DNA from: a virus
UHGV virus genome: UHGV-0128598
Strand: one strand, 5' to 3'
DNA: 11,616 nt
Position numbers and translations under genes: made by a program. Positions 1 through 11,616 of the stretch are shown here, one piece after another; position 1 is the stretch's first letter, and each line of letters opens with the position of its first letter. The notes beneath the pieces were generated by a model. The model was not told the DNA's origin. It saw only the letters and a program-made list of their open reading frames with translations, and made no database searches.

Positions 1-182
1 TGCGGGAAAGCAGACGCAAGAAATAGCGGCAATGTCTGTCCGTCCAGTCGAGCATCGGCGCGATGGAAAAACGTGAAGGGCTGTATCCCGGCGTTTTTCC
101 TCTGTTAACGCTGTTCTGGTGTGGGTTGTGCGATTCTTTATTTTCGTGCATTTTTTGTCTTTATGTCGTATTTTTTCTTTAT

Positions 183-240: not shown

Positions 241-1329
241 ATGGCCTACTATAGCATAGAAAAACGTCAACGCGCCGATGGGACTTTACGCTACCGCTGC
301 ACCGTGGGCGTAAAAGAAGGTGGGAAATATATCTACCGGGAAAACCGAACATTCAGCAAACAGGCCCATGCCAAAACGTGGGGTGCTGGTAGGGTTGCTG
401 AACTGGAAACAAATGGGGTGCCGACCACCAACGACTTAAACAAAATGGTTGTTGGCGATCTGCTCAAACGCTATATCAACGATCCCAACCTCGGCGGCAA
501 AGCCGGGCGCACAAAACGTTATGTACTGGATATGTTGCTGGACTGCAACATCGCCGAAACCCCTCTGACAGACCTTTCAACCAGCCACGTTATCGAGCAT
601 TGCCGCCACAGAAACGGCGCTGGTGCCGGTCCTTCTACTATTAACCACGATGTAAGTTACCTTTCTTCCGTTCTGGCATCCGCCAAACCCGTCTACGGTA
701 TCGACTACACGACCAATCCCGCAACAGATGCAAGACCTCTACTGCTCCAGATGGGGCTGATTGGCAAATCCAAACGCCGCAGCCGCCGCCCTGTGAGCGA
801 CGAACTGGATAGACTGCTCGCAGGGCTTGAGGCCAGAAGCGATCACGTCGCAGCAAAAATCCCCTTCGTTGATATTCTTAACTTCTCAATCCTCAGTTGT
901 ATGCGAGTTGGCGAAGTGTGCAAAATCCGCTGGGAAGATGTAGACGAAAAACAAAAGGCCGTGCTGGTCAGAGACAGAAAAGACCCGCGCAAAAAATCCG
1001 GTAACCATATGCTGGTACCACTTCTCGGCGATGCCTGGAACATAGTGCAACGTCAGCCCAAAATCAGCGAGTTAATTTTCCCTTATAACTCTCGTTCTGT
1101 AACTGCGGGTTTTCAACGTGTCAGGAACGCCCTGGGCATTGAAGACTTGCGCTACCACGATATGCGCCGGGAGGGGGCCAGCAGGCTTTTTGAGGCGGGT
1201 TTTAGTATAGAAGAAGTGGCCCAGGTTACAGGCCATCGGTCTCTTAATGTACTCTGGCAGGTTTATACTGAACTGTTTCCGAAATCCCTGCATGAAAAGT
1301 ACGACGCGCTGCACGCTAAAAAGAAGTAG
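241..1329 (+). CDS. int: Phage tyrosine integrase (site-specific recombinase)
   Basis: 362-aa ORF with ATG start and AAGGA ribosome-binding site 6 nt upstream. C-terminal catalytic region shows the tyrosine-recombinase pattern: R in CMRVGEVCKIRWEDV, H-x-x-R in YHDMRREGASRLF, and H...Y in VTGHRSLNVLWQVYTELF. Sits at the edge of a phage gene block. Confidence 0.85.
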   Translation: MAYYSIEKRQRADGTLRYRCTVGVKEGGKYIYRENRTFSKQAHAKTWGAGRVAELETNGVPTTNDLNKMVVGDLLKRYINDPNLGGKAGRTKRYVLDMLLDCNIAETPLTDLSTSHVIEHCRHRNGAGAGPSTINHDVSYLSSVLASAKPVYGIDYTTNPATDARPLLLQMGLIGKSKRRSRRPVSDELDRLLAGLEARSDHVAAKIPFVDILNFSILSCMRVGEVCKIRWEDVDEKQKAVLVRDRKDPRKKSGNHMLVPLLGDAWNIVQRQPKISELIFPYNSRSVTAGFQRVRNALGIEDLRYHDMRREGASRLFEAGFSIEEVAQVTGHRSLNVLWQVYTELFPKSLHEKYDALHAKKK

Positions 1330-1561
1330 CTTTATACCACGCCTGCCAGCGATACTTATCCTGCCGCAGCTGGCGCAGACATTCAGCAGTTTCTATATCA
1401 GCCTGCAGATCTTCATCGCTGTCTGTTCCAGCTTTGCTCGCTCCCTTGCACGGCTCCTGCATCAAATCCGCTGATGGAGTTGGCCGCATCGAGGGCGCGC
1501 TGACGCAACTGCACAGCGTGATCGTCAAAATCGCACTTAGTATGATTCGGGTCGTTAACAT
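1316..1561 (-). CDS. Rz1-like outer-membrane spanin (o-spanin), overlapped with Rz
   Basis: 81-aa ORF in a different frame from Rz, starting inside Rz (ATG at 1561, GGTGA 5 nt upstream) and running past the Rz stop. N-terminus MLTTRIILSAILTITLCSCVSAPS looks like a lipoprotein signal with Cys at 17 and 19, though the lipobox is not canonical. Position directly after the endolysin and Rz. Its last 14 nt overlap the 3' end of int. Confidence 0.5.
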   Translation of the reverse strand: MLTTRIILSAILTITLCSCVSAPSMRPTPSADLMQEPCKGASKAGTDSDEDLQADIETAECLRQLRQDKYRWQAWYKATSF

Positions 1562-1796
1562 ATTTCACCACATCGCGATAAATGGTCCGGTAAATCACTT
1601 TGCCTTCTGCGCTGGACGCTGCCGCTTTCTGTTCGCCGGTTGCTACAGCCTTCTCAGCCTTTTTACTCTTCTCCTGATATTCGCTGTTTATCTTGTCACT
1701 GTGCGCGTACCAGCCTTTCAAGTAACCCGCGTAATACGCACCGACGAGCAACGCCAGCAGAACGGCCAGCGCTAACAATTTTGTTTTAAGGGTCAC
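1413..1796 (-). CDS. Rz-like inner-membrane spanin (i-spanin)
   Basis: The ORF track gives 1413-1814 (GTG start). A GTG at 1796 overlaps the endolysin stop as GTGA with GGGGGA 7 nt upstream, giving [25 protein letters not shown]..., a basic N-terminus followed by one transmembrane segment and a charged, helix-like periplasmic region. This is the typical Rz layout and position. Start codon is uncertain between 1796 and 1814. Confidence 0.65.
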   Translation of the reverse strand: MTLKTKLLALAVLLALLVGAYYAGYLKGWYAHSDKINSEYQEKSKKAEKAVATGEQKAAASSAEGKVIYRTIYRDVVKYVNDPNHTKCDFDDHAVQLRQRALDAANSISGFDAGAVQGSEQSWNRQR

Positions 1797-2323
1797 TGGT
1801 CTATCCCCCAGCACGTCAGCGCGCTTTCCTGGTCACGACGGGATACCTGCCCGTAGCAGTTATTGGAACGGATCCGGCAATCGCGTCCACCGTCTTTTAT
1901 CCACCACCTGATTGCTTCACATGCCCCCTTCCGATCGCCGGCATTGATTCGCTTATAGAACGTGGATGGGAAACACTTGCCGGGGCCGATATTGTACGGG
2001 CAGAACGACGCAATACCTGCTTTCTGCGGTTCAGTCAGCGGCACTTTGATATTGTGCTCTACCCAGGCTAGCGCTTTATCGCGTTCGATAGCGTTTACCT
2101 GGTCACATTTTGCCTGCGTCAGCTTCATACCCTTCACTACAGGCTTACCATCAACCATCGTGGCACCACGGCAAATCGTCCAAATTCCTCCAGCGTCACG
2201 GTATGCGGAGAGACTGTTGCCCTCTTTCTCATTCAGGAACTGATCGAGAATAACCGATGCTGGCGCACCGGCGAGTACCAGTCCCAGAACAGCAGCGCTA
2301 AGCTTAGTCCTGTTGCTGGTCAT
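1793..2323 (-). CDS. SAR endolysin (T4-type lysozyme fold, phage 21 R-like)
   Basis: 176 aa with ATG start and AGAGG ribosome-binding site. N-terminal Gly/Ala-rich weakly hydrophobic segment [19 protein letters not shown] (signal-anchor-release type) followed by the catalytic triad spacing E-x8-D-x5-T in [16 protein letters not shown]. Start overlaps the holin 3' end by 20 nt; stop overlaps the Rz start. Confidence 0.85.
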
Positions 2324-2540
2324 AGAGTTGAGCCTCTTTGCGACGGTCTTCTTTGATTTTGAAATAGAGATTGGTCAGGTAGGTAACCAGCCCCAGAAAT
2401 ATACTCGCCAGCACACCGATAGCAGCCCACTGGCTTGGGCTGACTTTATCGAGTAATTGCAGTAACCAGAAGACGCCACTGCCCCCGGACGTAATATAGG
2501 AAGCACCTGCCGCCAGACCTGAATGGTTGTTCATCCTCAT
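2304..2540 (-). CDS. Pinholin, phage 21 S-like class II holin with dual-start motif
   Basis: 78 aa with two predicted transmembrane segments and a charged C-terminus ([11 protein letters not shown]). Strong resemblance, from memory, to phage 21 S pinholin ([12 protein letters not shown]...[16 protein letters not shown]). Starts M-R-M (ATG AGG ATG), the Met-basic-Met arrangement used for holin/antiholin dual starts. Directly upstream of a SAR endolysin. Confidence 0.8.
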
Positions 2541-2587
2541 ACCTTACCCCCCGTAGGGAACACTATTAAGTGCTCCGAGGGTAAGGT
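2541..2587 (-). promoter_or_regulatory. Hairpin enclosing the holin ribosome-binding site (perfect 9-bp inverted repeat, 29-nt loop)
   Basis: Plus-strand ACCTTACCC at 2541-2549 is the exact reverse complement of GGGTAAGGT at 2579-2587. On the sense (minus) strand the 3' arm GGGUAAGGU sits immediately 5' of the holin AUG and contains the Shine-Dalgarno-like G-rich element. Confidence 0.4.
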
Positions 2588-2595
2588 GGTGATGT

Positions 2596-2610
2596 GGTCG
2601 GAATCCTGAC
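2596..2610. repeat. Copy A (degenerate) of the 16-bp inverted-repeat motif GGTCGGAATCCCGACC
   Basis: GGTCGGAATCCTGAC read directly; differs from copies B and C by one substitution, with the final base absent (next base is T). Lies in the acyltransferase-holin intergenic region, 55 nt upstream of the holin ATG. Confidence 0.6.
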
Positions 2611-2651
2611 TATTGGAGGTATTGACCCGAGAGCCAACATAATGAATTCAT

Positions 2652-3755
2652 TTAGGGTGTATTTAACCCTTTAATTTTTTTATGGCTTAGCAAGCCGAAC
2701 AGGCCCCATATTTTATTAAAGGCGCGTGTTACTTTTTTATCCAGAAGCTTTATGTACAGCGCTGCAATAGTAAACGATATTAACATCGAAATAACTATCG
2801 TCACCTCATAGTTAACAAAAGTCTTCGTAACCGGATATTCAACCCACCACTTCCTTTCAAACATAGCGTGAGACCAAAATCCGATATCGGCATGTATTAA
2901 ATACAGTGGGTATGTCATCGCCCCAAGAAACTTAACAACATTATAAAACTTACCGACTTCAGATACGTTAGATGCACACCAGGTTAACGTAACAAGAGAG
3001 ATACATGCGAGCAGAAGAGATGCATCAGAAACTGAATACCCAAAACTTCCATTTACATATGAATTAAAACCCAACATTCTATTATATATGAGGATCACAC
3101 TAAGAACCATCAAGACGAAATCAAAAGGAGATGGCTTATTTTTCATTATGTCATATATTACTATCCCTGCAATGAAATGACCGGCATGTTCAGTTATAAA
3201 TAGCGCATCAACAAAGCTAGAATGGATTAAAAATTGATTGCTGTATGAAATCACCAACCATGCAAAGCAAATCTCCCTTCTGTAACCACTCCAAATGTTA
3301 AATAACATCATAATGAAAACCAATATATAAAATGTCACCTCTTTCTGAATTGTCCAATAGATATCGCTAAAAAAATGATATCCGAACACTTGGGGGAAAA
3401 ACGTAAAGCTATAGAATAAAGAAACAATCCTTTCCTTAAAATCAACCATTGGTATAAAGCACTGAAACACTAAAACTATAAATCCAAATATTATAAAGGT
3501 GGGTACTATCCTATTAATCCTTGACTTAATAAATTCAACAGGTGTTCTTCCAACTGATGAAAGTGATATTACAAATCCACTTATAATGAAAAATAAATCA
3601 ACACCAAAGTCCCCAAAATAGAAGGCATTAACTGTTAACTCTTTCGGTAGGAAGCCTGAGATAGGCCCAGCGAACAAGTAGTGGTACAACATCACCATCA
3701 TAAATGCCATAAAGCGAAGACCGTCGAGCGCTTCAATCCTTACTGTGGTTTTCAT
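2652..3755 (-). CDS. Integral-membrane acyltransferase, Acyl_transf_3 (OafA/Oac) family; probable O-antigen O-acetyltransferase
   Basis: The track starts at TTG 3758; ATG at 3755 is the likely start (AGAGGA upstream), about 367 aa. Highly hydrophobic with many predicted transmembrane segments and the family motifs: R-x10-H (LDGLRFMAFMMVMLYH), FFxISG (VDLFFIISGFVIS) and RI.P (RINRIVPTF). Markedly AT-rich compared with its neighbours. Confidence 0.85.
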   Translation of the reverse strand: MKTTVRIEALDGLRFMAFMMVMLYHYLFAGPISGFLPKELTVNAFYFGDFGVDLFFIISGFVISLSSVGRTPVEFIKSRINRIVPTFIIFGFIVLVFQCFIPMVDFKERIVSLFYSFTFFPQVFGYHFFSDIYWTIQKEVTFYILVFIMMLFNIWSGYRREICFAWLVISYSNQFLIHSSFVDALFITEHAGHFIAGIVIYDIMKNKPSPFDFVLMVLSVILIYNRMLGFNSYVNGSFGYSVSDASLLLACISLVTLTWCASNVSEVGKFYNVVKFLGAMTYPLYLIHADIGFWSHAMFERKWWVEYPVTKTFVNYEVTIVISMLISFTIAALYIKLLDKKVTRAFNKIWGLFGLLSHKKIKGLNTP

Positions 3756-3760
3756 CAAAT

Positions 3761-3803
3761 CCTCTGGAGTATGCTTTTTACTAAGGAAATCATACCCCAG
3801 AGG
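3761..3803 (-). promoter_or_regulatory. 13-bp inverted repeat (17-nt loop) between tailspike and acyltransferase, enclosing the acyltransferase ribosome-binding site
   Basis: Plus-strand cctctggagtatg (3761-3773) and cataccccagagg (3791-3803) are reverse complements with one mismatch. On the minus-strand RNA that mismatch is a G-U wobble, so all 13 bp pair; on the plus-strand RNA it would be a C-A mismatch. The 3' arm contains the AGAGG element 5 nt before the start. Confidence 0.4.
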
Positions 3804-3819
3804 CTTTACTAATCAAAGT

Positions 3820-6321
3820 TTATCTTGTCAATCGCGCGACGATACCCGCCATGACAAAAACGATTATCTGGTCGTAGTTTAATCCGTATGTGTCGGCCTC
3901 TACATCATGCTCAATCATTTTATACTTTCTGTAATCAAGCCCGTGTCTAGCCATTACCTTCATGACATGCTGTACGGTATACCCAATGTTAACCCCCGCC
4001 TGCTCGCCAAAGTCTCGGCAATCCTTGAGCCACCGGAAAGTACCTGCGCCTAATGCAAGCTCCTGGGATGCTGCAATCTCGGCATCAGTAAATGGTTCAA
4101 TCTCAGTTTTCTGGCGTGCATCAGAGGTAGTAACCACGCCACCTGCTGAATATACACTAGCCCATCTCCTTGAAGAGTTTCCAAGTGTGTAAGTATTGTC
4201 AATATGGGGACCACATGCCCCATTAACATCAAGAGGAAATATTGGATTATCAGTGTTAACCCCAACATTACCACCGCGTGGGTTAATAACTACCTGGTAG
4301 TTATTACCTGATGAATCACTACCCTGAATAAAACCGCCATTAGAACCAGAGTTGCTTAAACATCCAAACTGTAACTCTCTACCACCATCATTATATGAAG
4401 ATCTAAATATTGCTGATGTTTTCAACGTTGAATCTGACAGCGGAATATTTGTTTTATTATCTACAGAAAATAATGCCCTTGGTGTTCCTCCCGTATTCAT
4501 TACCCCAACAAGCCCGCCTGGTGTTATCTCCATAACTTTATGTGGCTTATAGGCCCCATCATCACCATTGTAGAACCGTATGGGGTAATAGTATCCGTTG
4601 CCAGCTATACCGGCTCTAATCTCGTATTCACCAGTCGCTTTTGCAGATATACTGAGATTTTCTTCATCAGCCCCCGTAGTCTTCTGCACGCGGATCGTAC
4701 TTATCTGCGCCCCAATATCGTCACGAATTTTATATGTTGCGCCTGTAGCATTTATAGACGTGTCCTGTAAATTACAGGTGTTGCCGTTATTTGAAATACT
4801 GACAACAGTGCGTAGCGTACCGTTCAGCCAGAATTTATAGGCTCCACTACCGTAACCGAAGAAAAAAAACGGGTCCCCTGACGTTCTGGTGCAAACACCG
4901 TTAATCACGTCACAAATGCCACCACCAGTGGTGTACACATAATGGAATTTTGAGTGCGTACCCACTGCCGCAGTAAGATCCCCGCCGCCTATTTCTGTTA
5001 CGGAAATCTGCCCTGTTGAGGTTAATGCAGTAATTACCAGCGCCCGTTCAAATGCGTATATAGCATCGCCTACTGACCACTTATCTAAGTCGAATAAAGA
5101 GCCACCCTCTCTGACCAGAATATTTTGTGATTGGTGGACTAGTTGACCTTGTGCAGCAGAGCCGTATACAACCACTTCTGAAGGATTGTAATTTTTACTA
5201 GTCTGAATACGCATCCAATTTGCATGACCATCAGATGATAAAAACATACCGTCACCTGAATCCATTAAAGCCCCACCACCGACCTTGAATCCCCCTGAGT
5301 TAGTAGTGGTACCTGCCGAAACAACGCCAGCCCCAAATTTGGTCTCATCTCGTTTACGATACTGGACATTAAGGAATGCCGAGAACGATACTGCTGGTGA
5401 TAAGATTGCCTCGGAGTCCACAACCAGTGTTGGGAGTTTCGCCCACACTAAAGCTATTGGTGTATTGCAAACATAATTCCCCTGCGGAACGTGCAAAGTG
5501 GTACACCCGGAAGGTAGGTTGGATATCATAGAAGCCCAAGCCGCGCTCTCGTCCGAACCATCCCCCCTGACCCCGAAATCTTTTACGCTCAGTGTGTCGG
5601 CGTTTTTATCATGCTGTGTACGCCCCACAGATCCAGAATATGGCTGTTTTACCCCGATAAGAGCATCGCCCTTGCCGCTATCGGTGCTCGCGAGATCTAC
5701 CAAAACATCAGCAGCGCTACCACTCTCTGGACGAACAAATATCGGAGCACCCTCAGCATTGTAAGCCTGTAATCTGTTTGCACGCTGCTCAGCTGGTGCA
5801 AGCGGTGCCACGTAGTTTTCAGGCACGCGCAATGCCCTGTTAAGATTGGTCTGCCCGACCTCCTGCACGTATTTTTTGGTTGCTGCGTCCTGGTCATTAA
5901 CCGGATCCGCAAGGCCGGATATGCGATACCCTTCTGCGTTAAACGGTCCTCCAAGCAACGGGCGACGTAACGCCAGTCCGAGATAAATAAAAGAACGCTG
6001 GATAGCCATCCAGAGGCGGTCAAAATCTTTATTGACGGTATCTGCCAGCAGATCGCCATTGTCCTGGTAATCAGTCAGGCGATAGGTAGGAACAACACGT
6101 TCCAGCATAACAACCGTGCCGTTAGCAGGTGGGGTTAAAAACGTAAGATCACCACCGCTAACGTTACCCACTCCCGACACAGTAAATCCAGTAGTAACAG
6201 GCGTACCATTAAGACTCACCTGAATATCGCTGGCGCTGATGATGTAGAACTCAAAGGGAAAAACGGTCGTCAGACCGTTGGCGTTATAAATAATATAGGG
6301 GGTCTGATTCGGTACCGACAT
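3820..6321 (-). CDS. Tailspike/tail fibre: T7 gp17-like N-terminal anchor, pectate-lyase-like beta-helix depolymerase, C-terminal peptidase S74 intramolecular chaperone
   Basis: 833 aa, ATG start. The N-terminal 150 aa or so resemble, as recalled, the T7 tail-fibre N-terminal domain (VFPFEFY, ERVVPTYRLTDY, ISGLADPVNDQDAATKKYV). The mid region carries the pectate-lyase-3 start signature SVKDFGVRGDGSDESAAWASMISNL. The C-terminus has the autoproteolytic chaperone motif ...SSRRWASVYSAGGVVTTSDARQKTEIEPF. Confidence 0.9.
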   Translation of the reverse strand: MSVPNQTPYIIYNANGLTTVFPFEFYIISASDIQVSLNGTPVTTGFTVSGVGNVSGGDLTFLTPPANGTVVMLERVVPTYRLTDYQDNGDLLADTVNKDFDRLWMAIQRSFIYLGLALRRPLLGGPFNAEGYRISGLADPVNDQDAATKKYVQEVGQTNLNRALRVPENYVAPLAPAEQRANRLQAYNAEGAPIFVRPESGSAADVLVDLASTDSGKGDALIGVKQPYSGSVGRTQHDKNADTLSVKDFGVRGDGSDESAAWASMISNLPSGCTTLHVPQGNYVCNTPIALVWAKLPTLVVDSEAILSPAVSFSAFLNVQYRKRDETKFGAGVVSAGTTTNSGGFKVGGGALMDSGDGMFLSSDGHANWMRIQTSKNYNPSEVVVYGSAAQGQLVHQSQNILVREGGSLFDLDKWSVGDAIYAFERALVITALTSTGQISVTEIGGGDLTAAVGTHSKFHYVYTTGGGICDVINGVCTRTSGDPFFFFGYGSGAYKFWLNGTLRTVVSISNNGNTCNLQDTSINATGATYKIRDDIGAQISTIRVQKTTGADEENLSISAKATGEYEIRAGIAGNGYYYPIRFYNGDDGAYKPHKVMEITPGGLVGVMNTGGTPRALFSVDNKTNIPLSDSTLKTSAIFRSSYNDGGRELQFGCLSNSGSNGGFIQGSDSSGNNYQVVINPRGGNVGVNTDNPIFPLDVNGACGPHIDNTYTLGNSSRRWASVYSAGGVVTTSDARQKTEIEPFTDAEIAASQELALGAGTFRWLKDCRDFGEQAGVNIGYTVQHVMKVMARHGLDYRKYKMIEHDVEADTYGLNYDQIIVFVMAGIVARLTR

Positions 6322-6342: not shown

Positions 6343-7953
6343 TTAATAATCGACTTCGACCTCATGGTCTCCGTCACTTAACTGCCAATGTTCCCGCGAT
6401 TGTCCGGTCGGAATCCCGACCACTTTGCCGATACGAACCGGCGTTGCACTAATAGCACCCGCACCAGAATCAATGAAATCGTCCGGCTGGTTGGTCAGTG
6501 CCGGGTTAAAGTCCCGCATCTGGTCGTACATCGGGCCATCAAGCACGTCAGTGTGCGCCCACAGGAAACGGGAAGACAAAGGAGCTTCGAACGCATCAAG
6601 GATACGCTTCTGCTTGTTTGTCACGCTGAATTCTTCCCGCACGCCGCACCCGGTACCTTTTAACGCCTGCCGCAGCAGTTTTCCCGCAAAGCCGCCGGGG
6701 CCGTTTACCTCGACACAAACAACGGGGATCTGGTATCGGATAACCAGCTCTTTAATCTGGGCGACCTGCCCGCCAGTAATCTTGTCGTTATCGTCAAACT
6801 CTGCCAGTTCACCAGTCAGCTCCTTGCAAACATGCCAGTACAGATGTCCGCGCGCGTCAGTCAGTATCAGGGATAACGCTGAGGCGTCCGCTTTCACTTT
6901 ACCGGTTGCCACGTCCCACCACGCCACAGCACCAACAATTTGCGTGCTGCCGAGCCACATCGAGGCGGTACGGTTGGCGTAGCGAATTTCAGGATGGATG
7001 TTGTACTCACGGATGCGATCAGGATCGAGACGAACGTCGCCAACGGGTTTACTGTGCAGCTGGTACTGGCTGTCCCACTCGTTAACGGTGCGACATTCTT
7101 TACGGCGCAACTCCAGCTCGTCATGATCGAATCGCTCAGGCCAGGCACATCCGGCGTAGAAATCAATAACCGTCTCTGGCGCCGCAGCAAACTCCACGCC
7201 GTCGGCGGTCAGCTTGTAGTCAACATCCTCGACCAGCAGTCGCGCCGCTTTATGGATGCCCGCGAAAACGTACTCCGGCCGGAACGGAATAACGTAGCGC
7301 AGCTGCGTGGCATCCTTCGCCTCGATGCGCTTTTCTTTCTCAAACAGTTTAATGGTCAGACAGTCAGCACCTGCCGATTCCATTTCATCGTAGAGGCTGT
7401 CATGTGTGTGCGGTGTACCGATAAAGAGCTTTCGCCCGCCGGGGATCAGGATGTGAGTTTGCTCGCTCAGGCGGTATCGCAGTTTCTCACGCGCTTCCGG
7501 CGTCTGGATGTTGCCGGGGACTTCCACGTCGTCGTTCTGGCACTCATTTGCACGCGCGCCGGTAACGTTCGACAGGATACCTTTTGCGAACATGCTCGCG
7601 TTACGCATATCCAGCGAACCGTTAACCCACCACTGCTCGACTGTGCCGAGTCCATCCGGCAACATGCCTTTTGTCAGGGGGTGATTGCGTAAAACGTTCT
7701 GCGTATCGCGGCTGGTTTTGCGCGCTGTGGAATCTGATTCAGACTGGTGCAGGACCCGGTACTGGCGGTCGCAGTAATATCGCCATGCGTTATAAACGCC
7801 CAGTATGGTAGATTTACCGAAACCACGAAAACAGCGAAGCACCGCAAGATTTCCGCGATGCTCCAGCCAGTGACAGGCACGATAGTGGCAGTCCGGAACG
7901 TCCCAGTTCATCCGCTCCGCCCACATTAAAAAGAAGGCGAGGAACGAAATCAT
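6343..7953 (-). CDS. Terminase large subunit, T7 gp19-like (DNA maturase B)
   Basis: 536 aa, ATG start. Walker A in RGFGKSTILG, plus DDVEVP...AREKL and FIGTPHTHDSLYDE, which resemble T7 gp19 as recalled (AFRGIGKS, ADDVEIP...AREKL, YLGTPQT..LY). Start overlaps the upstream gene stop as ATGA. Confidence 0.85.
   Translation of the reverse strand: MISFLAFFLMWAERMNWDVPDCHYRACHWLEHRGNLAVLRCFRGFGKSTILGVYNAWRYYCDRQYRVLHQSESDSTARKTSRDTQNVLRNHPLTKGMLPDGLGTVEQWWVNGSLDMRNASMFAKGILSNVTGARANECQNDDVEVPGNIQTPEAREKLRYRLSEQTHILIPGGRKLFIGTPHTHDSLYDEMESAGADCLTIKLFEKEKRIEAKDATQLRYVIPFRPEYVFAGIHKAARLLVEDVDYKLTADGVEFAAAPETVIDFYAGCAWPERFDHDELELRRKECRTVNEWDSQYQLHSKPVGDVRLDPDRIREYNIHPEIRYANRTASMWLGSTQIVGAVAWWDVATGKVKADASALSLILTDARGHLYWHVCKELTGELAEFDDNDKITGGQVAQIKELVIRYQIPVVCVEVNGPGGFAGKLLRQALKGTGCGVREEFSVTNKQKRILDAFEAPLSSRFLWAHTDVLDGPMYDQMRDFNPALTNQPDDFIDSGAGAISATPVRIGKVVGIPTGQSREHWQLSDGDHEVEVDY
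6406..6421. repeat. Copy B of the 16-bp inverted-repeat motif GGTCGGAATCCCGACC (6-bp arms, 4-nt spacer)
   Basis: Exact 16-mer shared with copy C. Lies inside the last 26 codons or so of the terminase gene (encoding ...VGIPTG...), 84 nt upstream of the tailspike ATG. Confidence 0.65.
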
Positions 7954-8291
7954 TTTTTGCCTTTCTGCAGGCGCTCGATAATGGCGAGGGCTTCACGCTC
8001 CGCCTTCGATACCTGCTGCCCCAGCGCAAAGGCTTCATCATCCTGCCCGGGGTTATCTGAAGGCGTACCACCGCGCGTTTGCATGCCAATAAGGGAATGC
8101 ACCTTAATCAGCAGCGTCAGCGAAGCCGCCGCGTTCTTCTTGTCCCAGTATCGATCGCCGCGCTCGTCTTTGGTCAGTTCGCTGGGTTTCTTCCCCGCCC
8201 CCGGCCAGTTGTCCGGATCGGCTTCTTCGAGCACCACGTCAGTGAGTTTATCGCTCAGCGCGGTAAGGCGTGTCTTGTAATCCTGATGCAT
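7950..8291 (-). CDS. Putative terminase small subunit (called by position only)
   Basis: The track extends to a TTG at 8375, but that would read through a terminator-like hairpin and the 3' end of the upstream gene. The first ATG is at 8291 (MHQDYKTRLTALSDK..., 113 aa). Acidic/charged small protein whose stop overlaps the large terminase start (ATGA). No sequence motif recognised. Confidence 0.45.
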   Translation of the reverse strand: MHQDYKTRLTALSDKLTDVVLEEADPDNWPGAGKKPSELTKDERGDRYWDKKNAAASLTLLIKVHSLIGMQTRGGTPSDNPGQDDEAFALGQQVSKAEREALAIIERLQKGKK

Positions 8292-8319
8292 AAAAAAGCC
8301 CTGTAGTGAATACAGGGCT
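8292..8319 (-). terminator. Intrinsic-terminator-like hairpin (9-bp stem, 5-nt loop) followed by T6 on the minus strand
   Basis: Minus strand reads AGCCCTGTA-TTCAC-TACAGGGCT-TTTTT and then the ATG at 8291. Lies between the gp16-like gene stop (8356) and the small terminase start. It leaves no room for a Shine-Dalgarno element, so it may instead be a leader or processing structure. Confidence 0.5.
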
Positions 8320-8337: not shown

Positions 8338-8353
8338 GGTCGGAATCCCGACC
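8338..8353. repeat. Copy C of the 16-bp inverted-repeat motif GGTCGGAATCCCGACC
   Basis: Exact 16-mer, starting 2 nt after the stop of the gp16-like gene on the minus strand, 46 nt upstream of the small terminase ATG and just upstream of the terminator-like hairpin. Confidence 0.65.
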
Positions 8354-8355
8354 GA

Positions 8356-9870
8356 TTACCGCATGCCGGGGTCAACCTGATTTATCAGCGGCGCTATCCA
8401 GAAAAGATTATTACCCGGCAGCAGCGTACGCACGTTATGCAGTACCCGATCGCCAGCATCACCGTTGAGCACTCCGGCGGTCACATCGGTGACGGTATCC
8501 AGCAAGCCAAACGTCGGGCCGAGAGCGGAGCCAATAAAGCCACGGCTGGCATAGCGAGACTGTGTGCCGGTACCGAGCAGTGCACCCAGCCCCACCATAC
8601 CGCCGGAGGCTTTTTCTGCCATGTTGTTATATTCCATCAGCGGGCCGAGAATACCGGACCGGTCGATACCTTCAATGGCCAGTTTCTGAGGCGACCAGTC
8701 AACCTCTTTACCATTTGCGGATTGTTTAAGTGCGTACGTCAGTGCGCCGAGGCTAATCTGGAAAGCGGTACCGTAATAAAACTGTCCGGTTCCCTCCTGC
8801 AGGCCGCCCAGCGTTGCGCGGTTGTAGGACGCGGTAGCGAACGATTTAAACTGGAAGATAGTTTTACCCAGTGGCGTGCTGGCCCACAATGGCGTATCGC
8901 CGATCCCCGGTGTGATAACTGTATTGTTAACGTCTTTGAGCACGGCCGACTGAAAAACGCCAGCCACATGCTGATCGTCCCATTTTTCAAAATTGCCGAT
9001 ATGCCAGCCATTGATTACCTCACCGTGTTTTTCGAATTCGCTGCGAATACGCGCGGCCATATTGTCGTTAATGCCGAGCTTGGCAAGGCGGCGGCCCGCA
9101 AACGCGCCGGACAGAATGCCGTCGGAGGTGATCATGCCGTTTACCGATTTGTTCATATCGTCGAAGTGGCCCATCAGCGTGAGCTTGCCGAACGCATCGG
9201 TGACGCGCTCCATTCCCGCCTCTACCGCTGTAGTGCGGGAGGAGCTGTCTACCAGGTCACCCATCGTACGCGCACGGGTATGCAGGATGGTTTCCAGCCC
9301 GACGGCCATTTTTAACTGTTCGGCCCGGCTGGCCTTGAATGCCGGCGACCGGGTTATCAGCGCAGAGTAACCGCGCATGGTATTGCCAAACCCGTTAACC
9401 ATCACACCGCGGGCGAGATCAGGAATAGCGGAAACGGTCATACCGCCCAGCTTGGTGACAAAGTTGGCGCTACGCAGAAACGCACCGGCGCGAACGAAAA
9501 ATGATGATGGGTCATCCGGCATACCGTAGGTACCGACGAGGCGATCGCGAAGCGCCAGAATATCGCGCAGATCGGCTTCGCGCGCCTTCGCCAGCTTTTC
9601 CTGCTCTGCCGGGCGTAACCGCATCAGCGCGTCGTATTCGTCCTGGATGGCAGCGAGCTGCGAATCCAGCGACTTGTTGCCAAAGGTACGGGTTAATTCA
9701 ATTTCCGCTGAGGCTTCGCGGATATGACGCTGCAGGACGTAGTTTGCATCGCTCTCCAGATAATCTTTCATCAGGCGATCGGGAACGCTCAACGTACGCG
9801 ATTTGGTGCTGCCCGGCGATTTCAGCATCTTCGCGGGACATGGTTTTCTCACCGCGTGACCACCAGTCAA
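8356..9870 (-). CDS. Internal virion (ejection) protein, T7 gp16-like, C-terminal portion; apparently separated from the N-terminal portion by a frameshift
   Basis: 504-aa ORF. Gly/Ala-rich hydrophobic stretches and a FQFKSF motif resembling the C-terminal part of T7 gp16 as recalled. The first 30 codons or so look non-protein-like and overlap the upstream ORF, so the true N-terminal boundary is probably the frame junction near 9795-9802. Confidence 0.6.
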   Translation of the reverse strand: MTGGHAVRKPCPAKMLKSPGSTKSRTLSVPDRLMKDYLESDANYVLQRHIREASAEIELTRTFGNKSLDSQLAAIQDEYDALMRLRPAEQEKLAKAREADLRDILALRDRLVGTYGMPDDPSSFFVRAGAFLRSANFVTKLGGMTVSAIPDLARGVMVNGFGNTMRGYSALITRSPAFKASRAEQLKMAVGLETILHTRARTMGDLVDSSSRTTAVEAGMERVTDAFGKLTLMGHFDDMNKSVNGMITSDGILSGAFAGRRLAKLGINDNMAARIRSEFEKHGEVINGWHIGNFEKWDDQHVAGVFQSAVLKDVNNTVITPGIGDTPLWASTPLGKTIFQFKSFATASYNRATLGGLQEGTGQFYYGTAFQISLGALTYALKQSANGKEVDWSPQKLAIEGIDRSGILGPLMEYNNMAEKASGGMVGLGALLGTGTQSRYASRGFIGSALGPTFGLLDTVTDVTAGVLNGDAGDRVLHNVRTLLPGNNLFWIAPLINQVDPGMR

Positions 9871-11182
9871 CCAGCATATTGCGGAATTTATCTCGCTCGC
9901 TAACGATTTTACCCACCTTGTACACGCGCGGAAAATAGCTGGTCTGTCCCATCGCTTTCAGTTCGGCATCCGGCGGGAGTAAGCCCAGTTCCTGCTGGGC
10001 TGTCTTCACGCGGTTAATGACCGTACGCATTGCCTGCGCAGCTTCCTGCACTTTTGCATTAACGTGCACGTCGCCGTTACGCAGCGCCTCGCCAACCTGT
10101 TCACGGAAGGCCGTATAACCCAGATCGCCGCCTTCGGCTTTATACTGGGTGTATGCCTGCTTATTCGCAGTAACGACGGCCGCCTCTTCGCGGTGCCAGC
10201 CACGTACGCGCGTCTCGGCTGCTACCGGTGTTTCGATACCGCGCAGGTTGCCTTCCAGCGTGAAGTTATTCTCCGCCAACTCCAGCGCTGTCCGGCGCGC
10301 TTCTTTTGATGGGGATTCCATCAGGCGGGTGATCGGCGTCAGATAGCTACCGGCCTTTTTAGCCAGCTTGCCGAGCGGGCCGCCAGACACCGGTGTGAGG
10401 TCTTCCAGCGTTGCTTCGCGAATACGCATGGCGCCGACGCTGCCACCGTTCGGTAAAGTATCCGCCAGGGCGTCAGCTGCGTTGTTAATCGTTGGCGCGG
10501 CATTCATGTTATCGAGCGCCTCCGCCACTTCCCGTGTAGCCGCGTTTCTTACCGATGGGGTGATCATCGCGCCAGCAGTAGCAAATACACCGCTGAGAAG
10601 CGCGCCGGCTGTAATGTGCGCGGCGCTCTCCCTTGCTGTTCTGGTGTACTGCTCGTTATTGAGCGCAACCTCGCTAAGTGCGGTACCGGCGGCGCCAATA
10701 GCAATCTGAGAACCAATACGAGCAGCCAGGCTTCCCTGCGCACCGGGAATAAACATCGATGCGACCGTGACAGGGTCGATAACCCCGGCGGCGATACTGG
10801 CCAGAGTTCCTTCAGCGCCTGCCTCAGACAAAACCCGACGGTCTTCATTTTCATCGTCTATCTGGTTTTTTATCCAGGCGGTTTCCTCTGGCGATCGAGA
10901 ATCCGCAAAGGCGGATCCCCATTGTTCGTACCCCTTTAGTTCGTTTTTATCAGAATAAGGGTTATACCCGTCCGCCGGTTCGAATTGTTTGGCCGAGCGG
11001 AACATTCCAGCCAGCAGGTTATTCTGACGAAATGCAGCGCCCCACACAGACGGCTCATCCTGCTGAGGTGCTGGGTTAGTACCTTCAGGCAAAGGCACAT
11101 CAAATCCGGTAGGTGCAGCCAGGACATTACCCGCCGGAGTGAATCCGTTATTGAGTTCTTCAGGGGTGGCGTATACCGGCAT
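9698..11182 (-). CDS. Internal virion (ejection) protein, T7 gp16-like, N-terminal/central portion
   Basis: 494-aa ORF, ATG start overlapping the upstream stop (TAATG). Motifs resemble T7 gp16 as recalled: TPEEL, SEAGAEGTLASIAAGVIDPVTVASMFIPG (compare AGIIGAGVDPLSYVPMVG) and EKTMSREDAEI (compare AKMSREETRY). The last 30 codons or so are low-complexity and overlap the next ORF in another frame. No N-terminal transglycosylase-like region is evident. Confidence 0.6.
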   Translation of the reverse strand: MPVYATPEELNNGFTPAGNVLAAPTGFDVPLPEGTNPAPQQDEPSVWGAAFRQNNLLAGMFRSAKQFEPADGYNPYSDKNELKGYEQWGSAFADSRSPEETAWIKNQIDDENEDRRVLSEAGAEGTLASIAAGVIDPVTVASMFIPGAQGSLAARIGSQIAIGAAGTALSEVALNNEQYTRTARESAAHITAGALLSGVFATAGAMITPSVRNAATREVAEALDNMNAAPTINNAADALADTLPNGGSVGAMRIREATLEDLTPVSGGPLGKLAKKAGSYLTPITRLMESPSKEARRTALELAENNFTLEGNLRGIETPVAAETRVRGWHREEAAVVTANKQAYTQYKAEGGDLGYTAFREQVGEALRNGDVHVNAKVQEAAQAMRTVINRVKTAQQELGLLPPDAELKAMGQTSYFPRVYKVGKIVSERDKFRNMLVDWWSRGEKTMSREDAEIAGQHQIAYVERSRSPDERLSGERCKLRPAASYPRSLSGN

Positions 11183-11577
11183 TATTCAGTGCTCCACGAA
11201 AAGTAATTTTTAACCCTGTCCATGCGCTCGTTATGCAGGCGCTTGTACTGCTCATCGAGCGCACGGTGCTTATCTTTGAACCCACGAATATCCTGCCCGC
11301 GTTGCAGCTCATTGCGATCATGTTCTTCGCGCTCTTCCTGCATTTTTTTGTATGGCGCCCACTCTTCCAGTGACGGTTTCCAGCGCATCGGCCTGCCGTA
11401 CGAATCGTAGAACGGTTGTACCGCCTCGATACCATCCTTATCTTTTGTTCGCACCATGATGGCGTAATCGCCATTGCGGGCCGTCAGTACATCAGGGGTA
11501 ATTTCCAGATCGCCGCCAATACGCGACTCCGGCGTTTTGCTGGTGACAGGCGCTGCGTTACCGGGTGATGCTGCCAA
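11182..11577 (-). CDS. Hypothetical protein, translationally coupled to the gp16-like gene
   Basis: The track ORF starts at a TTG (11577) with no ribosome-binding site. The first ATG is at 11457 (MVRTKDKDG..., about 91 aa). Charged, helix-like C-terminus. Stop overlaps the next start (TAATG). A different frame is open from the window edge to a stop at 11484-11486, so an upstream gene may be cut by the window. Start and reality of this ORF are uncertain. Confidence 0.35.
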   Translation of the reverse strand: MAASPGNAAPVTSKTPESRIGGDLEITPDVLTARNGDYAIMVRTKDKDGIEAVQPFYDSYGRPMRWKPSLEEWAPYKKMQEEREEHDRNELQRGQDIRGFKDKHRALDEQYKRLHNERMDRVKNYFSWSTE

Positions 11578-11616
11578 CTTACTGATTTAGTGTATGATGG
11601 TGTTTTTGAGGTGCTC

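Follow-up and report, generated by a model that had tools for sequence, protein, structure and literature searches.

Temperate short-tailed phages with a T7-type terminase are already represented among isolates. YeP4, YeP5 and YeP6 of Yersinia (MK733262-4; unclassified Caudoviricetes) are induced podoviruses; YeP4 was induced with mitomycin and imaged as a podovirus (PMC6548840). Alcaligenes phage Piluca (MZ326864) is temperate and plaque-isolated, was predicted from its tail proteins to be a podophage, and has headful packaging indicated by PhageTerm (PMC9022569). In Piluca and in vB_EcoM_APEC (Escherichia, MT664721), three large internal virion proteins are followed by terS, terL, fibre, holin, and endolysin, with an integrase added in Piluca. 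Other described layouts place these genes differently. Across T7, SP6, and phiKMV (Autographiviridae), a gene with the gp17-type N-terminal domain directly follows the gp16-like gene and precedes the terminase; SP6 has the adaptor gp38 in this position and separate tailspikes, gp49 and gp50, after the terminase. The fibre genes of Bordetella phage BPP-1 (Rauchvirus) and Burkholderia phage BcepC6B (Ryyoungvirus) directly follow the internal virion proteins because the terminase lies before the portal.

We analyzed a stretch of 11,616 nt (UHGV virus genome UHGV-0128598), referred to below as the window. It is the late (right) arm of a dusA-integrated Escherichia coli prophage of ~34 kb in full, with 100% identity to STEC383 and 99.9% to B379, two complete E. 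coli genomes. Integration was into host dusA, whose 5′ end forms positions 1–151 (minus strand; annotation of the identical STEC383 region) on the attL side. The adjoining gene encodes a tyrosine integrase of the dusA-associated type (241–1329, plus strand; Pfam Phage_integrase, E=2.6e-19). This integrase gene abuts the dusA 5′ end and the far end of the prophage carries a dusA fragment, which marks a dusA-associated element; the integrase family has been described (PMC4482086). The full STEC383 prophage encodes a LexA-family repressor and an HTH gene, a temperate switch of the cI/cro type; small regulators of the PrtN and ANR families are also among its genes. On the minus strand, the window presents in order an internal virion protein D-like gene, a 113-aa terS-like gene, TerL (536 aa), tail fibre, acyltransferase, holin, SAR-type lysozyme, and Rz/Rz1; the lysis cassette ends the late arm and is followed by integrase and dusA.

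Two lesions make this copy of the prophage defective: a 77-bp deletion affects the gp16-like gene, and IS1 has inserted into the gene for the SLT protein. The gp16-like gene, for internal virion protein D (8356–11182, minus strand; PHROG 342, E=1.5e-111 and 8.8e-79), is frameshifted and split by the deletion at about 9814–9828, as judged relative to STEC383 and all relatives compared; in STEC383 the gene is intact and encodes 967 aa. Its product is weakly similar to SP6 gp37 and phiKMV gp37 (E about 3e-8). The C-terminal part of an SLT-domain internal virion protein gene (11182–11562, minus strand; PHROG 38128 and 1044, STEC383 annotation) is cut by IS1, whose end, an inverted repeat, occupies 11563–11616 (unstranded; 94% match, at a distance of 4 nt from the IS1 transposase annotated in EC2). 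In STEC383, the SLT gene carries a frameshift. The whole window matches 9761 E. coli records at a median of 10 places per genome, although no more than a handful contain its phage part; positions 11560–11616 on their own match unrelated phage records. An Rfam scan of the window gave no match.

The segment at 6343–8291 holds two minus-strand genes, ORF 7953..6343 (536 aa) and ORF 8291..7950 (113 aa), the latter overlapping the start of the former by 4 nt. The 536-aa product (6343–7953) is a T7-type large terminase, as an earlier note on this DNA had proposed: phmmer matched it to the T7 gp19 structures 8dgc and 4bij over the ATPase domain (E=6.5e-18 and 2.7e-17), residues 3–529 match PHROG 38 "terminase large subunit" (E=1.1e-85), and the Pfam profile for the T7-terminase RNaseH-like nuclease domain is just above threshold (27.2 bits, cut-off 27). 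Its identity to the TerLs of T7, SP6, and phiKMV is 24–31%, limited to the N-terminal 160–200 residues, with no preference for the SP6 or the phiKMV protein.

The 113-aa product (7950–8291) is a conserved three-helix protein of PHROG 9277 (function unknown), and we regard it as a putative small terminase by position, size, start/stop overlap with terL, and conserved placement. The gene lies upstream of terL in 77 of the 79 phage and genome loci scanned—the two exceptions being GC-rich loci where the script returned a spurious long ORF—and the Piluca homologue is annotated as terS. A Pfam scan of 35 family members gave no match, hhalign of the family against T7 gp18, SP6 gp40, and phiKMV gp42 gave a probability of 0.2, an AlphaFold three-helix model (pLDDT 82) had no Foldseek fold match in PDB or BFVD, and the source names recovered in a homologue search were all "hypothetical protein." Pfam, PHROG, and phmmer thus bear out the identities that the earlier note gave to TerL, the gp16-like protein, the fibre, the acyltransferase, and the lysis genes; its small terminase is assigned by position. 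Only 64 nt separate the gp16-like gene from the 113-aa gene, with no gp17-type gene between them. A GC hairpin with a T-run (8297–8319, minus strand) ends at the terS ATG; it is terminator- or attenuator-like and conserved in the alignment, with 93.5% of cells paired and compensatory changes in 3/7 pairs. This hairpin overlaps the likely Shine-Dalgarno sequence.

To place this order among relatives, we used a TerL-based scan of 185,579 species genomes, which yielded 80 loci with 45–92% TerL identity; selected by TerL similarity, these loci describe the order in this TerL clade alone, not in all T7-like morphogenesis modules. Seventy-seven of them include DNA beyond terL and are informative. 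In 75, a co-oriented gp17-N-domain gene begins close behind terL, at a median distance of 22 nt; in the remaining two it is about 1.2 kb downstream, and none of the 77 has it upstream of terL. Hosts of the 75 terS–terL–fibre loci are Enterobacterales, Pseudomonas, Burkholderiales, and Acinetobacter (four bacterial orders), and YeP4, Piluca, and vB_EcoM_APEC, all isolated phages, are arranged likewise. The order is ordinary because it is standard in a widespread prophage family: a terS–terL pair between the internal virion proteins and the fibre is, with high confidence, the usual layout of these temperate short-tailed elements. A comparison of the records upholds the earlier note in that T7, SP6, and phiKMV have their gp17-N-domain gene before the terminase and this element has it after terL. 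The prospect raised there, that the order might be the norm of a described genus, is essentially realized: it is the norm in a clade that contains YeP4, Piluca, vB_EcoM_APEC, and 75/77 loci, but the genus is unnamed. We count the layout as known from deposited genomes and not from an account of it, the clade being without an ICTV genus name; as a gene-order curiosity it carries little weight, the family being already in databases with isolated members.

Downstream of the terminase pair, the sole PF03906 gene of the window encodes a tail fibre/tailspike of 833 aa (3820–6321, minus strand; T7 tail-fibre N-terminal domain, E=3.4e-11). Fibre residues 8–153 are a T7-gp17-type anchor, residues 212–284 resemble the start of the Sf6 tailspike, and residues 733–795 are a C-terminal S74 intramolecular chaperone. 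Beside it lies an Acyl_transf_3 membrane acyltransferase gene (2652–3755, minus strand; PF01757, E=1.2e-23; PHROG 3333 "O-acetyltransferase"), whose product shares 26% identity with the O-antigen acetylases GtrC of g341c and BTP1; the GtrC alignment spans 92% of its length. Judged from its sequence, it is probably an O-antigen acetylase and a lysogenic-conversion moron, with O-antigen as the presumed substrate. A sigma-70 promoter scan did no better than shuffles (10 sites found, 10.0 expected). The string TTGATT-16-TATGAT stands before the acyltransferase gene, a weak hint of a moron promoter.

The lysis cassette comprises a holin of the phage-21 S type (class II, pinholin-family; 2304–2540, minus strand; Pfam PF04971, E=1.4e-30; PHROG holin families) and a lysozyme with a Gly/Ala-rich hydrophobic N-terminus (1793–2323, minus strand; Pfam Phage_lysozyme, E=1.2e-25). 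The lysozyme translation contains an E-x8-D-x5-T triad, and the protein is probably a SAR-type endolysin. An Rz-like inner-membrane spanin (1413–1796, minus strand; PHROG 2536, E=1.1e-46; CDS as annotated in STEC383) is overlapped at its 3′ end by an Rz1-like outer-membrane spanin (1316–1561, minus strand; PHROG 5672 and 16495, both "Rz-like spanin," E=8.8e-19 and 2e-6), whose N-terminus, MLTTRIILSAILTITLCSC, is signal/lipobox-like.

We therefore read the window, very probably, as the late arm of an unnamed, widespread clade of temperate podoviruses. Internal virion protein, terS, terL, fibre, lysis, integrase is on this reading an ancestral order that the clade has kept, and not a recent hybrid. 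The full architecture of the prophage runs from a cI/cro switch through a DNA-pol/SNF2/DUF2800/DUF2815 arm, portal, capsid, tail tube A/B, and three internal virion proteins to fibre, lysis, and integrase. What defines the clade is that a T7-type terS-like/terL pair follows the last internal virion protein and precedes the fibre, in place of an unrelated pre-portal terminase; the direction of this ancestral rearrangement is our conjecture. Host RNA polymerase would express the co-oriented, closely spaced or overlapping genes as late transcription units, and the conserved gp17-type N-terminal domain would dock the fibre on the tail. Recombination between phages may then swap the fibre distal to the N-domain together with an adjacent O-antigen-type acyltransferase moron, with one crossover in conserved anchor-coding DNA and the other at a conserved sequence before the holin gene.

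The extent of homology bears on how much of this region is new. Distal fibre and acyltransferase form an exchanged cassette (about 2614–5776, minus strand) without homology to relatives, among them loci L011–L016, L091, and L092 and YeP4. Homology breakpoints against nine relatives fall at about 2613 and at 5776–5997: on the left, homology to eight relatives ends at 2610–2615, and on the right, nucleotide homology stops at fibre residues about 108–182. Had the whole fibre gene been inserted with the acyltransferase gene after the terminase in this element alone, the position of the host-range gene would be derived; low GC over 2500–5000, an acyltransferase gene missing from 80/80 related loci, and a cassette present in only 2/5426 complete E. 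coli genomes would all suit such an event. It is nevertheless highly improbable, given that the fibre gene sits at the same position in 75/77 relatives and that its first 108–182 codons are homologous to those of relatives at backbone-level identity, with 70–84% nucleotide segments entering the gene. GC content is 42% in the cassette, 35.5% in the acyltransferase gene, and 53–57% in the flanks; the N-terminal part of the fibre gene, at 50.6%, speaks against its arrival with the cassette. What was swapped in is the fibre beyond its gp17-like anchor plus the acyltransferase, and the swap leaves the position of the fibre gene unexplained. The cassette of tailspike and acyltransferase envisaged in the earlier note survives for the distal fibre and the acyltransferase but not for the anchor, which is homologous to relatives. 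As to a donor, megablast of 2614–5776 against the 5426 E. coli genomes gave only the same prophage, and the phage collection gave distant protein matches only. Among other E. coli variants, one has an esterase-type fibre without the acyltransferase, and one has an acyltransferase on the opposite strand. The block neatly illustrates host-range and serotype-conversion genes moving as a unit.

A hybrid of SP6/K1-5 and phiKMV layouts, the other idea of the earlier note, does not hold up. A recent recombinant of SP6-like and phiKMV-like Autographiviridae phages would account for the T7-type TerL and for two superficial resemblances, to SP6 in the receptor-binding gene behind the terminase and to phiKMV in the terminal lysis cassette. 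No RNA polymerase was found, however: tblastn with T7 RNAP gave no match in the full STEC383 prophage, YeP4, Piluca, or vB_EcoM_APEC (phiKMV control, 1e-15), and none of T7 type is annotated in these four. TerL, at 24–31% identity, is no closer to SP6 or phiKMV; the 64-nt gap after the gp16-like gene lacks an SP6-type adaptor; the replication, portal, and tail genes are BPP-1/BcepC6B-like; and the gene order is kept in four bacterial orders, even at TerL identities as low as 45%. Nor is the end-located lysis cassette a sign of phiKMV ancestry, since BPP-1 and BcepC6B have theirs likewise and the holin belongs to the phage-21 S family. We give such a recombinant hardly any credence. An order produced by prophage decay (IS1-mediated or deletion-associated rearrangement) or by misassembly is scarcely conceivable. 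The IS1 end and the 77-bp deletion in the window copy, together with the frameshifted SLT gene in STEC383, do attest decay, but the identical order recurs in two complete E. coli genomes, in the induced, particle-forming YeP4, and in the plaque-isolated Piluca; moreover, 3.2 kb separate IS1 from the terminase genes, and the deletion does not extend beyond a single gene.

Within the preferred reading, an ancestral order in a temperate clade, a repeated motif may bear on how late modules are exchanged. The 15–16-nt motif GTC(G/A)GGATTCCGACC occurs at five prophage sites in one orientation, upstream of the first late gene and of the capsid, terS, fibre, and holin genes. Three copies lie in the window, all on the minus strand: AGTCAGGATTCCGACC at 2596–2611, 61 nt upstream of the holin ATG and coinciding with the left edge of the cassette; GGTCGGGATTCCGACC at 6406–6421, 84 nt upstream of the fibre ATG, within the 3′ end of terL, where it encodes VGIPT; and GGTCGGGATTCCGACC again at 8338–8353, 46 nt upstream of the terS ATG. 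In YeP4 the same motif marks all five positions in a variant of the phage's own, GTCGGGAAACCGAA being present in four copies; equivalent sites in Piluca carry a repeat unrelated to it. Tentatively, in a T7-like lineage without an RNA polymerase of its own, the motif could be a phage-specific late promoter or activator-binding site that also serves as a linker for the exchange or permutation of late modules. If so, the terS–terL pair, with a copy on either side, could have been moved relative to the fibre gene; the cassette of fibre and acyltransferase would be expected to end exactly at the holin copy, and each phage to carry its own concerted variant. An RNA hairpin was rejected as an interpretation of the motif, two stem positions being unpaired in about half of the sequences. 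The motif and the covarying pre-terS hairpin offer leads on late-gene control in phages of the clade.

Set against the described groups, the prophage shares with T7, SP6, and phiKMV a TerL of T7 type. It differs from these Autographiviridae in having no single-subunit RNA polymerase and in being temperate, with a cI/cro switch and an integrase, and its fibre follows the terminase. Unlike SP6, it has no adaptor in the gp17 position, one 833-aa gene supplying both anchor and spike. With phiKMV it shares a terminal holin, lysozyme, and Rz/Rz1, whereas the phiKMV fibre genes precede terS/terL. A bacterial chromosome with "T7-like" structural and terminase genes need not harbour an Autographiviridae prophage. 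The temperate T7-like phages LUZ100, Pasto, and HTVC019P were also considered; they encode an RNAP, with the integrase beside it, and form a different group. P22-like phages (Sf6 with Oac; BTP1 and g341c with GtrC) likewise carry an O-antigen acetylase-like gene beside the receptor-binding gene, near the att/int end, but the acyltransferase here is only 26% identical to GtrC and the virion module of the prophage, of the T7/BPP-1 type, is unrelated to theirs. Xfas53, which the APSE paper groups with YeP4, was set aside as a relative, since its P22-like late module has no bearing on the order.

BPP-1 and BcepC6B resemble the prophage in whole-genome architecture, in the cI/cro switch, and in a DNA-pol/SNF2/DUF2800/DUF2815 arm with 38–68% identity (DNA polymerase 57–68%, SNF2 59–66%, DUF2800 44–45%). 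Identity is 26–29% for the portal, 30–32% for tail tube B, and 34% for the fibre N-domain; portal and tail tube A/B together span 26–34%. In both phages a fibre with a gp17-type N-domain is followed by lysis genes; the integrase comes after the lysis genes in BcepC6B and at the other end of the genome map in BPP-1. Their pre-portal terminase is unrelated to that of the prophage, and tblastn against the two genomes found no match for terS, terL, capsid, or scaffold. For annotation and classification it helps to recognise the clade as BPP-1/BcepC6B-like, with a T7-type terminase placed behind the internal virion proteins, and as lacking a genus name.

Within the clade, Piluca and vB_EcoM_APEC are the more distant isolates, with TerLs 44–47% identical to that of the prophage; lambda-like replication and recombination genes replace the DNA-polymerase module, the lysis genes differ, and the repeated motif of Piluca is another one. 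YeP4 differs in its integration site and integrase, in a fibre of only 465 aa with a 155-aa gene behind it and no acyltransferase, and in two reverse-strand genes between the last internal virion protein and terS. Like Piluca and the prophage, it is temperate, with an integrase by the lysis cassette and a cI/cro-type switch. Its TerL is 77%, terS-like protein 68%, portal 79%, capsid 84%, and DNA polymerase 74% identical to those of the prophage, and its internal virion proteins, terS-like gene, terL, fibre, holin, lysozyme, Rz, and integrase stand in identical order.

The minus strand carries all phage genes of the window: the C-terminal part of an SLT-domain internal virion protein (11562..11182), the gp16-like internal virion protein D (11182..8356), a 113-aa terS-like gene (8291..7950), a 536-aa terL (7953..6343), an 833-aa tail fibre (6321..3820), an acyltransferase (3755..2652), a holin (2540..2304), a lysozyme (2323..1793), Rz (1796..1413), and Rz1 (1561..1316). 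The tyrosine integrase maps to 241–1329 (+) and the 5′ end of host dusA to 1–151. Late genes are co-oriented and close together, with a 4-nt terS/terL overlap, a 21-nt terL–fibre gap, and overlaps between holin and lysozyme and between lysozyme and Rz. Reference orders were taken from sequence records: T7 runs gp16, gp17, holin, gp18, spanins, gp19; SP6 runs gp37, gp38 adaptor, holin, terS, terL, lysis genes, tailspikes gp49 and gp50; and phiKMV runs gp37, fibres gp38–41, terS, terL, holin, lysozyme, Rz. Each of the three has a gene with a gp17-type N-terminal domain after the gp16-like gene, whereas in the window only 64 nt separate the gp16-like gene from the 113-aa gene. The order difference therefore stands: gene map and domain matches confirm the earlier note's placement of the terminase genes between the gp16-like gene and the tail fibre, and the synteny comparison distinguishes the window from each reference. 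Relative to T7, the layout amounts to two adjacent modules exchanged.

By sequence, the 536-aa protein is a T7-type large terminase, the identity on which the claimed order depended. Its N-terminal ATPase domain aligns to the T7 gp19 structures 8dgc (E=6.5e-18) and 4bij (2.7e-17), PHROG 38 "terminase large subunit" covers residues 3–529 (E=1.1e-85), and the Pfam T7-terminase RNaseH-like nuclease domain scores slightly over its cut-off. The neighbors are likewise as described. The gp16-like gene matches PHROG 342 (E=1.5e-111 and 8.8e-79), with weak similarity to SP6 gp37 and phiKMV gp37. The fibre combines a conserved anchor with a variable distal part, carrying the T7 gp17 N-terminal domain (PF03906) at residues 8–153, a stretch similar to the Sf6 tailspike at residues 212–284, and a C-terminal S74 chaperone. 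A holin of the phage-21 S family and a Gly/Ala-rich hydrophobic segment at the lysozyme N terminus make a pinholin and SAR endolysin a reasonable reading of the lysis pair.

The small-terminase label is the weak point of these assignments. No member of the 113-aa family matches any Pfam model, hhalign gives a probability of 0.2 against T7 gp18, SP6 gp40, and phiKMV gp42, and all 101 of 101 database homologues are named "hypothetical." The AlphaFold model is confident (three helices, pLDDT 82), with no significant match in PDB or BFVD. Size, the 4-nt terL overlap, and a conserved place upstream of terL suggest a small terminase: a homologous small ORF immediately precedes terL in 77 of 79 loci scanned, a scan in which the script gave a spurious long ORF in two GC-rich loci.

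The terS–terL–fibre layout is ordinary for a common, under-described prophage clade. In the phage collection, the nearest TerL proteins belong to Yersinia phages YeP4-6 (77% identity), Alcaligenes phage Piluca (47%), Acinetobacter phages TPWB-05 and MD-2021a (47%), and Escherichia phage vB_EcoM_APEC (44%). In YeP4, Piluca, and APEC alike, the small gene, terL, and fibre come after three large internal virion proteins and before holin and endolysin; an integrase is next in YeP4 and Piluca. YeP4-6 were induced and are podoviruses by imaging (PMC6548840); Piluca is a plate isolate described as temperate, with headful packaging indicated by PhageTerm (PMC9022569). When one genome for each bacterial species was scanned with a TerL profile, 80 loci came out, with TerL 45%–92% identical to that of the window; their hosts include Enterobacter, Raoultella, Pectobacterium, Serratia, Sodalis, Pantoea, Pseudomonas, Burkholderia, Herbaspirillum, Comamonas, and Acinetobacter. 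Downstream order was readable in 77 of the 80 (DNA present past terL). A gene with the gp17-type N-domain lies on the same strand, at a median of 22 nt past terL, in 75 of these; in the other two, from Orbaceae, it lies ~1.2 kb past terL behind three small ORFs, and no locus scanned carries it upstream of terL. The order is thus the norm of a clade, rather than of a described genus, as its isolated members carry no genus assignment.

Several features of these loci are recorded alongside. In both Orbaceae (Gilliamella) loci (L042 and L048, 11635–13475), the intervening ORFs encode 80, 161, and 163 aa, the middle one lysozyme-like, and the gp17-type N-domain sits in a short 217-aa protein reminiscent of an adaptor. 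A second hot spot for insertions lies where the last internal virion protein gives way to terS; it holds two opposite-strand genes in YeP4 (L003 31889–33018) and one in E. coli 23GD11002 (L091 11521–11913). YeP4 TerL (L003 33407–35017) is annotated from 33878 only, as "DNA packaging protein"; as the full 536-aa TerL aligns by tblastn from 33407, the 5′ part of the gene is probably missing from the deposited CDS.

Apart from a 77-bp deletion and an IS1 end, the window matches the E. coli STEC383 chromosome at 100% identity and that of B379 at 99.9%. In STEC383 the prophage is complete, ~34 kb long, and bounded by dusA at one end and a dusA fragment at the other. Beyond the window, going upstream, come the remainder of the SLT-protein gene and the genes for a 155-aa protein and a GNAT acetyltransferase; the head and tail genes (tail tube B, tail tube A, capsid, scaffold, and portal); a VapE-type primase, a cro-like HTH gene, and a divergent LexA-family repressor; and DUF2800, DUF2815, DNA polymerase, VRR-NUC, SNF2 helicase, and a PrtN-family gene. 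Across the clade, the small GNAT gene (STEC383 locus L001, 33439–33888) sits among the virion genes, with tail tube B on one side and the internal virion proteins on the other; GNAT genes occupy other positions in BPP-1 (L006 bbp24) and phiKMV (L010 gp28). The window's own copy is defective because of the deletion and the IS1 insertion. The 77 bp, missing at ~9814–9828 relative to STEC383 and all other relatives, frameshift the gp16-like gene into two overlapping ORFs (9698–11182 and 8356–9870), where STEC383 has an intact 967-aa CDS. The IS1 end (11563–11616) interrupts the SLT-domain gene and matches the EC2 sequence at 94%, 4 nt from that strain's annotated IS1 transposase. In STEC383, too, the SLT gene carries a frameshift according to its annotation.

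Two short sequence features offer modest leads on late-gene control. A 15–16-nt motif, GTC(G/A)GGATTCCGACC, occurs on the late strand only, in three copies in the window (8338–8353, 6406–6421, and 2596–2611, all minus strand) and five in the prophage (the others at L001 41023–41038 and 37562–37577), where chance would give 0.1 copies in the window and 0.5 in the 49.6-kb STEC383 locus holding the prophage. Each copy precedes a gene: the first late gene by 48 nt, the capsid gene by 149 nt, terS by 46 nt, the fibre gene by 84 nt (this copy lies inside terL, where the motif encodes VGIPT), and the holin by 61 nt. These positions are also occupied in at least 10 relatives, and the copy inside terL is kept in Pseudomonas and Burkholderiales loci. 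YeP4 has its own concerted variant (TAGTCGGGAAACCGAAC) at four of the sites. Since Piluca carries an unrelated repeat (ACACCCAACAAACCCC...) at the terS, late-start, capsid, and tail (tail-knob gene) sites (L004 6–32, 19458–19484, 22690–22716, and 24199–24225), phage-specific module-boundary repeats may be general in the clade. An RNA hairpin was rejected: the palindromic core is not kept as one, so a DNA site is more likely. The motif is a candidate late promoter or activator site, or possibly a module-boundary recombination sequence; the holin copy coincides with the left edge of a swapped cassette. Separately, a GC-rich hairpin with a T-run (8297–8319, minus strand) runs up to the terS start codon and overlaps the gene's likely Shine–Dalgarno sequence. 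It is kept in 11 relatives, with 93.5% of cells paired and both sides changing in 3 of 7 pairs, and looks like a putative terminator or attenuator that would limit terminase expression.

In the working scheme we propose, host RNA polymerase would transcribe the late genes after induction, a T7-type terminase would package the DNA (compare the headful indication in Piluca), the fibre N-domain would dock at the tube A/B junction, as in T7, and a pinholin-family holin, SAR-type lysozyme, and spanins would lyse the cell. The acyltransferase would be active in the lysogen.

Two origins had been offered for the layout: entry of the tailspike and acyltransferase as a cassette, or a hybrid of SP6 and phiKMV layouts. 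The cassette idea holds for the distal fibre and acyltransferase. Nucleotide homology to all nine aligned relatives (two other E. coli prophages, Enterobacter, Trabulsiella, Pluralibacter, two Raoultella, Rosenbergiella, and YeP4) is lost between ~2610–2615, an intergenic breakpoint before the holin, and ~5776–5997, at fibre residues ~108–182, the end of the gp17-type anchor. GC content is 42% in this block (35.5% in the acyltransferase) versus 53–57% in the flanks; just 2 of 5426 complete E. coli genomes carry the cassette, and none of the 80 TerL-scan loci has a counterpart of the acyltransferase. Other E. coli variants carry at this site an esterase-annotated fibre without acyltransferase, or a different fibre accompanied by an opposite-strand acyltransferase. 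The encoded Acyl_transf_3 protein, 26% identical to O-antigen acetylases of P22-like g341c and BTP1 (GtrC), is a predicted lysogenic-conversion product that would modify the receptor seen by the adjacent fibre. A sigma-70-like TTGATT-16-TATGAT (3789–3816, minus strand) between the fibre stop and acyltransferase start codons is a possible moron promoter, in a promoter scan that overall did no better than shuffled sequence. The cassette is limited to the distal fibre and acyltransferase and leaves the placement of the fibre gene unexplained.

The hybrid origin fails: there is no RNA polymerase, the order is standard in relatives, and the backbone resembles BPP-1 (Rauchvirus) and BcepC6B (Ryyoungvirus). 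T7 RNAP gave no tblastn match in the prophage or its relatives (phiKMV control 1e-15), so the element is not an Autographiviridae-type prophage; the temperate T7-like phages of the literature (PMC10134795) do not apply here because they encode RNAP. BPP-1 and BcepC6B share the prophage's replication arm, with identities of 57–68% for DNA polymerase, 59–66% for SNF2 helicase, 38–68% for DUF2815, and 44–45% for DUF2800, and, among virion proteins, 26–29% for portal, 32–34% for tail tube A, 30–32% for tail tube B, and 34% for the fibre N-domain; no similarity links their capsid and scaffold to the prophage's. BcepC6B has the prophage's map, in which fibre, lysis, and integrase close the late genes and the polymerase arm comes next, ahead of cI/cro and primase; the BPP-1 map is similar. 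Their terminase is unrelated and precedes the portal, so their fibre directly follows the internal virion proteins, whereas the clade places a T7-type terS-like/terL pair between the two. We therefore see the fibre, lysis, and integrase order as the conserved backbone and the terminase module as the part that varies in type and position.
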